This document shows, in pieces, positions 47,571 to 51,722 of a stretch of 64,000 nt of DNA (position 1 is the stretch's first letter; each line of letters starts with the position of its first letter). The stretch covers positions 160,001 to 224,000 of the forward strand of contig CBDATA010000001.1 in the NCBI GenBank assembly GCA_965199715.1. Reading direction: 5' to 3'. This DNA comes from Vicinamibacteria bacterium. GTDB lineage: Bacteria; Acidobacteriota; Vicinamibacteria; Marinacidobacterales; Marinacidobacteraceae. Position numbers and translations under genes: made by a program. The notes beneath the pieces were generated by a model. It saw nothing but the letters and a program-made list of their open reading frames with translations, had not been told where the DNA came from and did not search any database.

Positions 47571-49574
47571 ATGATCCTCCGACTCGCCGCCACGCTCCTC
47601 GTCCTCGCCGCCCCGCTCGCCCTCGCCCAGGACCAGCGGGCCATGACCGTCGTGGACATGCTCGAGGTTCCGCGGATCGGCGATCCCCGGCTCTCGCCCG
47701 ACGGGACGGCGCTGCTGTACACGCGCACCGACGCCGACTGGGAGGAGAACCGCCGGGTCACCCACATCCACCGGATCGGCGCGGACGGGACCGGCGACGT
47801 CCGGCTCACGAACGGCGAGCGCGGCGAGTCCAGCCCCCGCTGGTCCCCCGACGGCTTCCGGATCGCGTTCCTCGCGCGGCGGGGCGAGACCCGCCAGATC
47901 CACGTCATCCCGGCGAGCGGCGGCGAAGCGGAGGCGCTCACCGACTTCGGAAGCGCGATCCGCTCCTTCGAGTTCGCCCCGGACGGGTCCATCTTCTTCA
48001 GCGCCCCGGAACCGAAGACCGCCGACGAGAAACGGCGCGAAGAACGCGGCCACGACGTGTTCGCGTTCGACGAGGACTACCGCCAGATCCACCTCCACCG
48101 GGTCGGGGCCGACGGCGAAACCGAGCGGATCACGAGCGGCGACTTCTCGGTGATCGCGTTCCGCCTCTCGGGCGACGGCGGGCGCGTCGTGCATTCCCGG
48201 GCGCCGACGTCGCTGCTCGACAACTCCGACGAGGGCGAAATCTGGATCATGGACGCGAACGGCGGGAACGCCCGCCAGCTCACCGACAACGCCGTCGGCG
48301 AGCGGGGCGGCCAGCTTTCGCCCGACGGGACCGAAGTGCTCTTCACGTCGGCTTCGAGCGCCGAGTTCGAGACCTACTTCAACGGCAACGCGTTCGTCGT
48401 TCCCGCGGCGGGAGGGCCGGCGCGCATCCTGTTCGAGGACTTCCCGTACGACGTGAGCCGCGCCGAGTGGGCGCCCGACGGCTCCATCCGGATGCTCGTG
48501 AACACCGGCGTGCGGAGCCAGATCTTCCGGGCCGTCGAGGGAGACGCGCCCGAACCGGTCACGTCGGGCGACCACTCGGTCGCCGGTTGGCACTTCAACG
48601 GGGACGCGCACGCGCTCGGAATCAATACGCCGACGAACGCCGGCGACGTCCACCTGCTGCCCGACGGGGGCGGCGAGCCGGCGAAGGCGACCGCCGTCTT
48701 CGACTACCTCGCCGACGCGTTCCGCCTGCCCCGGCAGGAAGCCGTCCAGTGGGAGGGCGAGGACGGCGTCATGGTCGAGGGCCTCCTGTACTTTCCCCTC
48801 GGTTACGAGGAAGGAACCCGCTACCCGCTCGTCGTGCAGACCCACGGCGGTCCCCGGTCCTCGGACAAATTCGGGTTCGGACGCTGGAGCAGCTACGTGC
48901 CGGTTCTGGCCGCCCGCGGCTACATGGTGTTCAAGCCCAACTACCGGGGCAGCACCGGCTACGGCGACGAATTCCTGCGCGACATGGTGGGCCACTACTT
49001 CAACCAGGCGCATCTCGACGTGATGGCCGGGGTGGACCACCTCATCGAGCGGGGCCTCGCGGACGGCGACCGCATGGCGAAGATGGGCTGGAGCGCCGGC
49101 GGCCACATGACCAACAAGATCATCACGCACACCGACCGGTTCAAGGCGGCGAGTTCGGGGGCCGGCGCGGTCAACTGGATCTCCATGTACGGACAGAGCG
49201 ACGTGCGCTTCCCCCGCACTCCGTGGTTCGGCGGCACCCCTTGGCAAGAGGATGCGCCGATCGACGCCTACTGGGGCAACTCGCCGCTTAAGGACATCTA
49301 CCGGGCGACGACCCCGACGCTCGTGCTCGTCGGGGAGAACGACGCCCGGGTCCCGATGGCGCAGTCGGTCGAGCTGTACCGCGCGCTCCGGACGAACGGC
49401 GTGGACACCCACCTGTACGTCGCGCCCCGCGCCGGCCACGGCTGGTCCGAGCTCCGGCACGGCCTGTTCAAGGTGAACGTGGAGCTCGACTGGTTCGAGC
49501 GGCACGTGCGCGGCAAGAAGTACGTCTGGGAGACCGCGCCCGGCGACGAGACTCCCGAGGAGGAGACCGAATGA
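47571..49574 (+). CDS. S9 family (prolyl oligopeptidase/acylaminoacyl) peptidase
   Basis: Signal peptide, SPDG propeller repeats, HGGP, NYRGSTGYG, GWSAGG nucleophile, GENDARV, GHG. Confidence 0.95.
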   Translation: MILRLAATLLVLAAPLALAQDQRAMTVVDMLEVPRIGDPRLSPDGTALLYTRTDADWEENRRVTHIHRIGADGTGDVRLTNGERGESSPRWSPDGFRIAFLARRGETRQIHVIPASGGEAEALTDFGSAIRSFEFAPDGSIFFSAPEPKTADEKRREERGHDVFAFDEDYRQIHLHRVGADGETERITSGDFSVIAFRLSGDGGRVVHSRAPTSLLDNSDEGEIWIMDANGGNARQLTDNAVGERGGQLSPDGTEVLFTSASSAEFETYFNGNAFVVPAAGGPARILFEDFPYDVSRAEWAPDGSIRMLVNTGVRSQIFRAVEGDAPEPVTSGDHSVAGWHFNGDAHALGINTPTNAGDVHLLPDGGGEPAKATAVFDYLADAFRLPRQEAVQWEGEDGVMVEGLLYFPLGYEEGTRYPLVVQTHGGPRSSDKFGFGRWSSYVPVLAARGYMVFKPNYRGSTGYGDEFLRDMVGHYFNQAHLDVMAGVDHLIERGLADGDRMAKMGWSAGGHMTNKIITHTDRFKAASSGAGAVNWISMYGQSDVRFPRTPWFGGTPWQEDAPIDAYWGNSPLKDIYRATTPTLVLVGENDARVPMAQSVELYRALRTNGVDTHLYVAPRAGHGWSELRHGLFKVNVELDWFERHVRGKKYVWETAPGDETPEEETE

Positions 49575-50662
49575 CCCAAAATCCCATGATCCGAACGACG
49601 ACACTCGCGCTTGCGCTCCTCGCCGGCTGCGCCGGCGAGCCAACTCCGCCGCCCGCCGATCCGTGGGCGGACCTCCTGAACGAGGCGCGGGAAGCCGCGG
49701 GCAGCCCGGGGCTCTCGGCCGCGGTCGCGATCGACGGCGAGATCATCTGGACCGGCGCGTCCGGCCTCGCCGACGTGGAAAACCAGGTGCCCGCGACGGC
49801 CGAGAGCGTGTACCGGATCGCCTCCATCTCGAAGCCGATCGCCTCCACCGCGATCATGCAGCTCGTCGAGCGCGGCCAGCTCGACCTCGACGACACGATC
49901 CAGACATGGTTCCCGGCGTTTCCGGAGAAGGAGCACGCGGTCACGATCCGGCACCTGATGACCCACACGTCGGGGATCCGCCACTACCTCCCGGGCGAGA
50001 TGGACATGAAGGACCACTTCGACACCCTCGAGGAGGCCATCGAGATCTTCAAGGAGGACCCGCTCCTGTTCGAGCCGGGGACCGACTACTCCTACTCTTC
50101 GTACGCCTACAACCTGCTCGCCGGCGTCGTGGAGACGATCTCCGGGCAGTCCTTCGAGGACTACCTCGTCGAGAACGTCTGGGCGCCGGCCGGGATGACG
50201 ACGACGTACCTTGAGCACCAGGGGCCCCTCGTTCCGCACCGGGTGCGTCAGTACGTCAAGGCCGACACTCCGGATCTCGTCGCCAACGCGCCCTTCGCCG
50301 ATCTCTCCATCAAGTGGGCGGGCGGGGGCATGATCTCCACCGCCCCGGACCTCGTCCGCTTCGCGCTCGCGATCGACGACGAGACGCTCATGGCGCCCTC
50401 GACGCACGACATGATGACGACCCGCTACGAGCTCGCCGGCGGGACGGTCAGCGACTACGCGCTCGGCTGGCGGATCGCCGACGACGAGGCGGGGACCTGG
50501 GTCGCGCACTCGGGCGGCGCCACCGGCGGGACGACCCACCTGCTCCGGCTGCCGGCCCGGGGGCTCGCCGTCGCCCTCACGGCGAACGTGCAGAGCGGAG
50601 GGGGGCTCCCCGAGACGGCGCGCCGGTTCGCCGATCTGGCGCTCGGCGGCGCGACGCCCTGA
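49571..50662 (+). CDS. Serine hydrolase, beta-lactamase/S12 family lipoprotein
   Basis: LAGC lipobox, IASISK (SxxK), LMTHTSG, YSYSSYAY, HSGG. Confidence 0.92.
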   Translation: MTQNPMIRTTTLALALLAGCAGEPTPPPADPWADLLNEAREAAGSPGLSAAVAIDGEIIWTGASGLADVENQVPATAESVYRIASISKPIASTAIMQLVERGQLDLDDTIQTWFPAFPEKEHAVTIRHLMTHTSGIRHYLPGEMDMKDHFDTLEEAIEIFKEDPLLFEPGTDYSYSSYAYNLLAGVVETISGQSFEDYLVENVWAPAGMTTTYLEHQGPLVPHRVRQYVKADTPDLVANAPFADLSIKWAGGGMISTAPDLVRFALAIDDETLMAPSTHDMMTTRYELAGGTVSDYALGWRIADDEAGTWVAHSGGATGGTTHLLRLPARGLAVALTANVQSGGGLPETARRFADLALGGATP

Positions 50663-50676
50663 TCTCTACCCGATCT

Positions 50677-51081
50677 CTATTCGTCGGACGCGCCGGGATA
50701 GACCCGCTCGCCCTCGTAGTCCCGGAGGCCGCAGAAACCTGAGACCTCGAATCCGTTGGCAGTCAGCAACTCCGCGGCACGCGCGGCTCTTCCGCCCCCC
50801 TGTCAAGCAGTGAGGATCGGGACTCCCCGGGGCAGCTCGCCGAGCCTCCCCTCGAGCTCGTCGATCGGGATGTGGACGAAGCCGTCGATCGTGCCGTGCT
50901 CGGCCAGTTCCTCGGCCGTGCGCACGTCGAGCAGCAGCGCGCCGTCCTGAAGGGCGCCGTCGATGTCGGCGGCCTCGACGCGGGGCGCCGCGTCGGGAGC
51001 GTCGGCCTCCTGCTCGCCGGCGCCGCATCCGAGCGCGAGCAGCAGCAGGCCCGCCGGGACCAGTGTCCGAACCATGGTCAT
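50677..51081 (-). CDS. Rhodanese-domain lipoprotein, probable selenoprotein (Sec93 encoded by TGA 50803-50805)
   Basis: MTMVRTLVPAGLLLLALGC...LLDVRTAEE...GTIDGFVHIPIDEL...PILTA-TGA-QGGGRAARAAELLTANGFEVSGFCGLRDYEGERVYPGASDE*; TGA occupies the catalytic Cys position of the CxxGxR loop. Confidence 0.85.
50772..50787 (-). other. Putative SECIS hairpin of the rhodanese lipoprotein
   Basis: GCCGCG-CGTGC-CGCGG beginning 16 nt after the in-frame TGA. Confidence 0.7.
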
Positions 51082-51428
51082 GCCTCCTCGGGCAGCGGAC
51101 GGTACTCCCGTTCGCCGACGTAGTCCTTGAGACCGGAAAAGCCGATCACTTCCCGGCCGGCCCGTTGGAGAATCGCCGCGGCACGCGCGGCCCGGGGGCC
51201 GACCATTCAAGTCGTGAGGATCGGGCGGTCCGTCGGCACCTCGTCCACGCGGTCCGCCAGCTCGCCCAGGTGGATGTGCAACGCCCCCGGAATCGTGCCC
51301 GACTCCGCTAGTTCGACCGCGGTGCGCACGTCCAGCAGCACCACGCCGGGACGGGAGCGGACCTCGTCGATCCGGTCGGCCGCGACGAAGGGGGCGCGAG
51401 TTCCGAGGACCCGTCCGATGACGCTCAC
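51078..51428 (-). CDS. Cytoplasmic rhodanese-domain protein, probable selenoprotein (Sec74 encoded by TGA 51207-51209)
   Basis: MSVIGRV...LLDVRTAVE...GTIPGALHIHLGEL...[50 protein letters not shown]; the read-through stop overlaps the next gene's ATG (ATGA). Confidence 0.85.
51155..51204 (-). other. Putative SECIS hairpin of the cytoplasmic rhodanese
   Basis: GGTCGGCCC-CCGG-GCCGCG-CGTGC-CGCGGC-GATTCTCCAAC-GGGCCGGCC: upper and lower stems immediately 3' of the TGA. Confidence 0.72.
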
Positions 51429-51449
51429 GGGAGCCGGATGGTATCCGAC

Positions 51450-51722
51450 TCAGACGCGGACCCTGCGCGCGTGCGCCCGCGGCGGCAGCACGTCGGCGAG
51501 CCGCAGTCCCCGTCCCTTCACGTACGCGAGCAGGCCCTTCTTGTCGATCGTCCGCAGGGCGCGAGCGGACAGGCGCAGGCGCACCGACCGGCCCAGCTCG
51601 GGCACCCACACCGACTTCCACTGCAGGTTGGGAAGCTGGCGCCGCTTGTTGCGGTTGTTGGCGTGGCTGACCGAGTTCCCGGTCAGCGGGCGCTTGCCGG
51701 TCAGCGGGCAGGTGCGGGACAT
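51450..51722 (-). CDS. rpmB: 50S ribosomal protein L28
   Basis: MSRTCPLTGKRPLTGNSVSHANNRNKRRQLPNLQ...LRTIDKKG. Confidence 0.97.
   Translation of the reverse strand: MSRTCPLTGKRPLTGNSVSHANNRNKRRQLPNLQWKSVWVPELGRSVRLRLSARALRTIDKKGLLAYVKGRGLRLADVLPPRAHARRVRV

Follow-up and report, generated by a model that had tools for sequence, protein, structure and literature searches.

Tandem genes for two probable selenocysteine-containing rhodaneses, one cytoplasmic and one a predicted lipoprotein, in a Vicinamibacteria bacterium

Rhodanese-like proteins in which selenocysteine (Sec, U) replaces the catalytic cysteine have so far been recorded by computational surveys. A 2026 review distinguishes, in its available passages, five forms of rhodanese-like selenoproteins, among which forms 2 and 4 belong to Pfam family PF00581 and carry the motif UxxG (PMC13188914), and the same records are listed in the accessible part of a 2022 review (PMC9312934). 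The Global Ocean Sampling study includes a selenoprotein family named 'Sulfurtransferase COG0607', whose table row we read as 6 Sec against 4,277 Cys homologues (PMC2398784), and an excerpt of the Sargasso Sea study gives 3 rhodanese-related sequences (PMC1088965). As far as the accessible passages of these sources extend, the catalogued Sec-rhodanese families are known from computation only, and a phrase search of a limited literature collection found no biochemically characterised Sec rhodanese. Here, we analyse two adjacent genes, termed A and B, each of which carries an in-frame TGA at the position of the rhodanese catalytic Cys. They lie at positions 50677 to 51428 of a 64,000-nucleotide stretch of DNA (the window) from a Vicinamibacteria bacterium (assembly GCA_965199715.1, contig CBDATA010000001.1, positions 160,001 to 224,000).

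Like forms 2 and 4 of the 2026 review, A and B each consist of a single rhodanese domain with predicted Sec in place of the catalytic Cys and a U-x-x-G motif (UMVG in A, UQGG in B); the fit to these forms (exemplars MBM9537886.1 and MCY3690685.1) is by domain and motif description, not by sequence, and extends to the available passages of the review. The Sec rhodanese with UxxG is an already known kind, to which A and B add, and the initial annotation of this DNA, made from the letters and their open reading frames (ORFs), was right that such proteins had been catalogued from computation (PMC13188914 and PMC2398784, in their accessible parts). The available passages of PMC13188914 make no mention of a tandem cytoplasmic and lipoprotein pair, an invariant second Cys or a frozen selenocysteine insertion sequence (SECIS). 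The NCBIfam model NF041203 (rhodanese_LYCAU, form 3, motif CxU) likewise describes a rhodanese-fold selenoprotein; membership was rejected, A reaching 18.2 of the 115 bits required and B giving no match, and both proteins lack a Cys at U-2 (T-T-U and T-A-U). With GlpE and PspE (COG0607), A and B share a single rhodanese domain of about 100 residues, although they would use Sec rather than Cys. The export of B recalls the periplasmic PspE. Membership in the GlpE equivalog NF001195 was also rejected (18.9 and 13.7 bits, where 102 are required). The closest solved structures are Shewanella loihica Npsr (3NTA, 4OCG), Bacillus anthracis CoADR-RHD (3ICR, 3ICT), Enterococcus faecalis CoAPR (8A56) and PDO-rhodanese fusions (3TP9, 5VE3). 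In these persulfide-handling enzymes, the rhodanese is the C-terminal domain of large cytoplasmic flavoenzymes or dioxygenases and uses Cys, whereas A and B are free-standing, carry predicted Sec and include one lipoprotein.

It is very likely that A and B are genuine selenoprotein genes, co-oriented and tightly spaced, that encode Sec rhodaneses, and the two are probably bicistronic. The features on which this reading is built are as follows.

51078 to 51428, minus strand: gene A, a predicted cytoplasmic single-domain Sec rhodanese of 116 aa, with a GTG start at 51428 and its final stop TGA at 51080-51078.
51207 to 51209, minus strand: predicted Sec codon UGA of A (U74), after PILTT, with active-site loop U-M-V-G-P-R; TGA in 24 of 24 A orthologues.
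51175 to 51191, minus strand: putative SECIS hairpin of A, GCCGCG-CGUGC-CGCGGC, with a 6-bp stem, beginning 15 nt after the UGA.
51083 to 51089, minus strand: Shine-Dalgarno-like GAGGAGG within the end of A, presumed from the sequence to serve B.
50677 to 51081, minus strand: gene B, a predicted lipoprotein with a single Sec-rhodanese domain, 134 aa, with ATG at 51081 and stop TAG at 50679-50677.
51025 to 51081, minus strand: predicted signal peptide of B with lipobox A-L-G-C, the codon of Cys19 at 51027-51025; LLLLALG-C19 is read in the sequence.
50803 to 50805, minus strand: predicted Sec codon UGA of B (U93), after PILTA, with active-site loop U-Q-G-G-G-R; all 53 exported Sec forms read have TGA here.
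50771 to 50787, minus strand: putative SECIS hairpin of B, (G)CCGCG-CGUGC-CGCGG(A), with a 5-bp stem, in the same register as that of A.
50731 to 50733, minus strand: second Cys of B (C117, motif GFCGL), which may act as a resolving or relay Cys and is shared by all 53 exported Sec forms examined.

Every coordinate that the initial annotation had given for the in-frame TGAs (51207-51209 and 50803-50805, after PILTT and PILTA), together with the product lengths of 116 and 134 aa, was borne out. Its proposal that read-through completes a rhodanese fold agrees with the matches of both read-through products to PF00581, which span the TGA and reach 41.3 bits for A and 40.6 bits for B (cut-off 22.2), and the homology that it had noticed between the two tails holds at 56% identity over 98 residues of A and B, the post-TGA parts included. 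It had also named, before any search, four checks on its proposal, namely the Sec machinery of the genome, Cys or TGA at the same column in homologues, the TGAs in sequencing reads and conservation downstream of the TGA, and the results of all four favour selenoproteins.

The TGA and the frame behind it are retained in relatives. A was matched at E<=0.001 in 39 of 41 genomes (the genome of the window, G000, and 40 relatives), a tally that takes in the unpublished genome G033, which has a weak match only and no TGA. G000 and 23 of the 24 other genomes of its family gave two matches each, with one TGA per match; the exception without the full two-match pattern, G020, is an 89% complete genome. 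The 30 loci read (L021-L050) contain 54 copies, of which 24 are A-type and 30 are B-type; the TGA falls at one and the same column in every copy, a regularity well outside chance, and xxGxRAARAA follows it. Close relatives of the pair in public metagenome-assembled genomes (MAGs) are filed under Vicinamibacteria bacterium, Candidatus Marinacidobacterium sp., Acidobacteria bacterium and Candidatus Spongiisocius variivorans. A sample of 301 genomes from the phylum, which counts the unpublished G089 with its locus not fetched, contains 35 that match B at E<=1e-12, in 39 match rows, 33 with one TGA and 6 without. TGA occupies the catalytic column in all 23 fetched loci, drawn from 31 TGA rows outside G000, and TGC stands there in the three fetched rows without TGA. 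Per 33 codons after the TGA, synonymous against non-synonymous differences number 11.5 against 7.0 in A (n=23) and 8.9 against 6.0 in B (n=43), and amino-acid identity in this part is 79-82%, equal to that of the upstream part. Because synonymous changes outnumber non-synonymous ones and identity stays as it was before the TGA, the post-TGA sequence is, judged by this comparison, translated and under purifying selection at the protein level. Furthermore, contigs from four runs of three studies, two of the runs being metatranscriptome libraries, cover 50600-51500 with both TGAs unchanged; they differ from the window only by C>G at 50704, which turns a CGG codon of B into the synonymous CGC.

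The machinery for Sec insertion is present in the same genome (2.66 Mb in 2 contigs, 93% complete, 71.5% GC), which encodes selA (474 bits), selB (327 bits), selD (248 bits) and tRNA-Sec (69.9 bits), all above their cut-offs. ARAGORN reports a tRNA-SeC with anticodon tca, the sole UCA-anticodon tRNA among 54. A change of the genetic code was ruled out because TGA is the commonest stop of this genome, closing 893 of 1260 long coding-like ORFs, and also terminates gene A itself and the ribosomal protein L28 gene. The selD gene forms the C-terminal part of a 748-aa ORF (G000:C1 ~1232508-1233425; L009:1396-3642, minus strand), the N-terminal half of which is a pyridine nucleotide-disulfide oxidoreductase (Pyr_redox_2, 106.9 bits), followed by the AIRS and AIRS_C domains; its motif CGGCAAK carries Cys, not Sec. 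NADH-oxidoreductase-SelD fusions of this type have been described (PMC2432076, in the part available).

Behind each UGA lies the same GC-rich hairpin. The 16-nt string GCCGCGCGTGCCGCGG stands at 51191-51176 and at 50787-50772, 15 nt past each UGA; it occurs twice in the window against 0.02 expected, and the pattern TGA-N15-GCCGCGCGTGCCGCGG has only two occurrences genome-wide, those in A and B. Across 69 sequences (61 distinct), the pairing is retained in 94.3% of cells and the four inner pairs are never broken, while 5 cells in two pairs show compensatory changes (C-G to U-A, G-C to A-U and G-C to C-G), the first two kinds being seen in A orthologues. The covariation score was reached by none of 500 shuffles, and every slid register scored lower. 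Additionally, third codon positions vary little within the hairpin (entropy 0.28-0.53 bits over its five codons, A-A-R-A-A) compared with those of the flanking invariant Gly, Arg and Leu codons (1.37-1.89 bits), and B-type genes from other classes of the phylum carry the hairpin string without a nucleotide change. Since synonymous sites are frozen and compensatory changes occur, the identification of the hairpin as a SECIS element is well supported, with SelB as its predicted ligand.

Divergent exported Sec-rhodanese subfamilies occur in other families of the phylum (L066-L072 and L074), with loops such as UGGGGR, UNAGGR and UQAGGR and the motif RA[AS]RAAE[KLM]F. Their hairpins, as judged by eye, stand in other registers, such as GGCGCG-CGNCG-CGCGCY from 10 nt past the UGA, and another of them has the form AGCUCC...GGAGCU with a larger loop.

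The fold of the proteins and the residue at the TGA column were examined through modelling and homologue searches. Alignment A2 served to build an AlphaFold2 model of B, whose mean predicted local distance difference test (pLDDT) score is 87.9, with values of 96-98 over residues 31-130. Strand 89-93 ends at U93 and is followed by helix 97-108, and strand 113-118 holds C117 close to its end. The top Foldseek matches of the model are rhodanese domains (E 4e-8, 33-39% identity), as are the best PDB sequence matches (E 8.5e-10), on whose catalytic Cys U93 falls. The active-site loops UQGGGR of B and UMVGPR of A are six-residue loops of the CX4R type, and the strand, loop and helix around U93 in the model of B agree with the alpha/beta fold of rhodaneses. 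A HMMER scan of 1.84 billion representatives gave 7595 matches at E<=1e-3, and 27 homologues were picked from the best 150, mostly short single-domain proteins with a match spanning column 93; multi-domain proteins (except the 336-aa P0251) and matches stopping at residue 92 were left out. When these 27 were aligned with P0123, A and B, the Sec column proved to be Cys in 28 of 28 database homologues, for U74 of A as for U93 of B. The top-scoring representatives, P0129 (2327 aa) and P0130 (863 aa), contain 16 and 6 tandem rhodanese-like stretches, respectively.

Database records of the family end at the TGA. A word-indexed search of B against 5.8 billion proteins gave 215 matches at E<=1e-5, the best 120 of which are all 80-111 aa long and cover at most 69% of B; four matches that were read end in ...LTA, the last residue being the one that precedes the TGA. 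Few matches are named, and those that are appear as 'hypothetical protein' of Acidobacteria MAGs. When the tail alone was used as query, a single protein was recovered, P0123, which is 74% identical in the tail and has Cys in place of the Sec. NCBIfam offers no equivalog, and there are only domain-level matches to its MoeB/MoeZ/GlpE models, far below cut-off. The initial annotation had expected standard annotation to present the genes as two truncated pseudogenes: truncated they are, but they were entered as short hypothetical proteins rather than pseudogenes.

The two proteins differ in their predicted location, in line with the earlier suggestion of one cytoplasmic and one exported member. 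All 24 B orthologues have a lipobox-like motif with its Cys, and B is by its signal peptide and lipobox a lipoprotein, lipidation being predicted. The A orthologues start at an aligned Met or Val and have no signal peptide in all 24 family genomes with the pair. At the position of C117, A-type proteins have Cys in 5 of 24 cases and Ser in 19 of 24. The spacing from A to B ranges from -4 to +64 nt in the 24 genomes. In the window, the stop of A and the first ATG of B overlap as ATGA (51081-51078), and GAGGAGG is separated from the ATG at 51081 by 1 nt. Another in-frame ATG, at 51075, lies 7 nt from GAGGAGG and is the start used for B by the database gene call P0003. Because of the 7-nt spacing and this gene call, B probably starts at 51075, which gives a product of 132 aa and a start 2 nt past the stop of A. 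The overlap and the GAGGAGG ribosome-binding site that the initial annotation had described are thus both present, but the overlapping ATG is the less likely start of B.

A tree of 90 rows recovers A as one clade (support 100/98) and the B proteins of the family as another (98/88). Sec and Cys labels are intermixed, forcing at least 3 changes, and the columns are too few to show where A branches with respect to B or in which order the switches took place. Among the genomes searched, A-type genes were found only in the family of the window, and B-type genes in several families and classes. Given this distribution, A would most simply be a family-specific duplicate that lost its signal peptide.

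We propose that, when a ribosome reaches UGA74 of A or UGA93 of B, SelB carrying Sec-tRNA(Sec) would bind the downstream GC-rich hairpin and Sec would be inserted; the hairpin starts 15 nt downstream, and 21 nt separate its apical loop CGUGC from the UGA. Translation would then continue until the next stop, which lacks a hairpin of this kind. This recoding mechanism is well supported. The products would be single-domain rhodaneses with Sec as the catalytic nucleophile in a CX4R-type loop. A would remain in the cytoplasm, whereas B would be exported, cleaved and lipidated at Cys19, so that its domain would sit on a flexible linker outside the cytoplasmic membrane. By analogy with known rhodaneses, the selenolate may attack the sulfane sulfur of thiosulfate, a persulfide or a polysulfide to form an enzyme Se-S intermediate, from which sulfur would pass to an acceptor, and the invariant Cys117 of B may resolve this intermediate. 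This sulfane-sulfur chemistry, its substrates and the role of Cys117 are suggested by homology.

Several points weigh against this reading of the pair. We infer the incorporation of selenium into A and B from sequence comparison, and the proposed sulfane-sulfur chemistry leans on homology to Cys enzymes at 33-39% identity. The contigs of the four runs are near-identical to the window, and some of the runs may be related to its source DNA; those from RNA libraries are no proof of transcription, of strand or of a single transcript. The 76 nt around the UGAs fold no better than shuffled sequences (z 0.08 and 1.18, at 71% GC), so that the SECIS assignment draws solely on comparative evidence. An Rfam scan of 50600-51500 matched the elements to no family and gave only two sub-threshold chance hits. 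Moreover, just 2 of the 6 stem pairs vary, so that the covariation amounts to few events among related sequences. In the fetched loci, no neighbour is conserved beyond sub-family synteny, and so no widely shared gene hints at a pathway.

Two alternatives concern whether Sec is inserted at all. That A and B are decaying pseudogenes, or truly short proteins of 73 and 92 residues ending at the TGA, would agree with the behaviour of gene callers, which stop there in the best 120 of 215 matches (80-111 aa, at most 69% of B; four ending in ...LTA). However, all 54 copies, as well as genes from different classes of the phylum, retain the TGA and the frame behind it, synonymous changes exceed non-synonymous ones after the TGA, the tail is required to complete both the rhodanese domain and the high-confidence model, and a fragment ending before the TGA would have no catalytic loop; this explanation is therefore extremely improbable. 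Slightly more room, though still very little, must be given to a UGA that is read through but not as Sec, whether by a reassigned code, a suppressor tRNA or near-cognate insertion of Trp or Cys. Sec and Cys insertion at a UGA are indistinguishable from sequence alone, which leaves this explanation its opening. Nevertheless, TGA is the main stop of the genome (893 of 1260) and closes gene A as well, the only UCA-anticodon tRNA is tRNA-Sec, a conserved hairpin stands at SECIS distance alongside the full Sec machinery, and the column holds Cys in homologues, the usual partner of Sec.

The alternatives that accept selenoproteins and question their role deserve more weight, although we consider them unlikely. 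The pair may serve functions other than sulfur transfer, with B acting as an extracytoplasmic redox protein through a Sec93-Cys117 selenenylsulfide, be it as a persulfide or polysulfide reductase or as a thiol oxidoreductase, or with the two proteins acting as a selenium (perselenide) carrier. Such roles would account for the Cys at U+24 in 53 of 53 exported Sec forms against 5 of 24 cytoplasmic A forms, and for a model that puts U93 at the end of strand 89-93 and C117 near the end of strand 113-118. They also agree with the closest solved relatives being rhodanese domains of persulfide reductases and, according to the accessible part of PMC9312934, with most predicted prokaryotic selenoproteins being described as redox proteins. 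On the other hand, the loop has the six residues of the CX4R rhodanese type, the pair is not linked to any gene for Sec machinery or thiol redox chemistry, and a little over half of the aligned Cys homologues, as judged by eye, keep the second Cys. A more specific proposal, to which we give somewhat less credence still, is that B, instead of being a classical sulfurtransferase, is a rhodanese-fold redox enzyme running a Sec93-Cys117 selenenylsulfide cycle (an extracytoplasmic persulfide/polysulfide reductase or thiol oxidant), that A is its sulfur or selenium carrier, and that the five A-A-R-A-A codons in the active-site helix are fixed by the SECIS RNA and not by the needs of the protein. If this were true, the redox form B would be the form that is spread over several classes of the phylum, and A would usually have lost the second Cys. 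The preferred reading remains that of Sec rhodaneses in which the selenolate would handle sulfane sulfur.

The genomic surroundings of the pair vary between genera. In the window, the L28 gene lies upstream of the pair and a beta-lactamase-family gene lies downstream in convergent orientation. The latter encodes a serine hydrolase (49571-50662, plus strand) and overlaps by 4 nt (ATGA) with the gene of a prolyl-oligopeptidase-family S9 peptidase with PD40 repeats (47571-49574, plus strand), also convergent to the rhodanese pair; both are ordinary genes. The L28 gene and an upstream gene, tentatively an M14-like peptidase, are common to only 7-8 loci in three genera. In 12 loci of another genus (L025-L035 and L037), the pair stands between a gene with an FGE-sulfatase domain and a gene of 458 aa. 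The former (178.7 bits; L033:26-1039, plus strand) is convergent, stands directly downstream of B and looks EgtB-like by eye; the latter lies upstream of the pair. The linkage with the rhodanese pair fails in other genera.

A GC-frame screen of the genome for in-frame TGAs gave 111 candidates and missed both rhodaneses, so that the selenoproteome it outlines is incomplete. Five more in-frame TGAs with coding-like sequence on both sides were picked by eye, at G000:C1:131299 (plus strand), C1:637274 (plus), C1:363627 (plus), C1:1605936 (minus) and C1:2327470 (minus). Their motifs are UPYC (glutaredoxin-like), FYVADWTGGU (peroxiredoxin-like), WUPFC, CHYU (AhpD-like) and UPIC, and these family names are readings of the motif only. 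Each of the five has a hairpin 12-15 nt past the UGA, and two share the loop GGUCU.

The A/B pair leaves the known picture of selenium use unchanged, and its value lies in what it corrects and offers. Annotation is corrected for a family in which the 120 best of 215 relatives of B are short in databases and no NCBIfam model would rescue them; because the genes stop short there, a marine Vicinamibacteria-like lineage of Acidobacteriota appears in the records without two of its probable selenoproteins. The pair also illustrates cleanly, by comparison among relatives, how a bacterial SECIS can lie within the codons of an active site, and since this element is conserved to the nucleotide across classes, TGA-N15-GCCGCGCGTGCCGCGG is usable as a search pattern. 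Finally, a cytoplasmic and a lipoprotein form, usually without and always with the second Cys in the copies read, respectively, make a natural pair in which to ask what benefit Sec may bring to a rhodanese.

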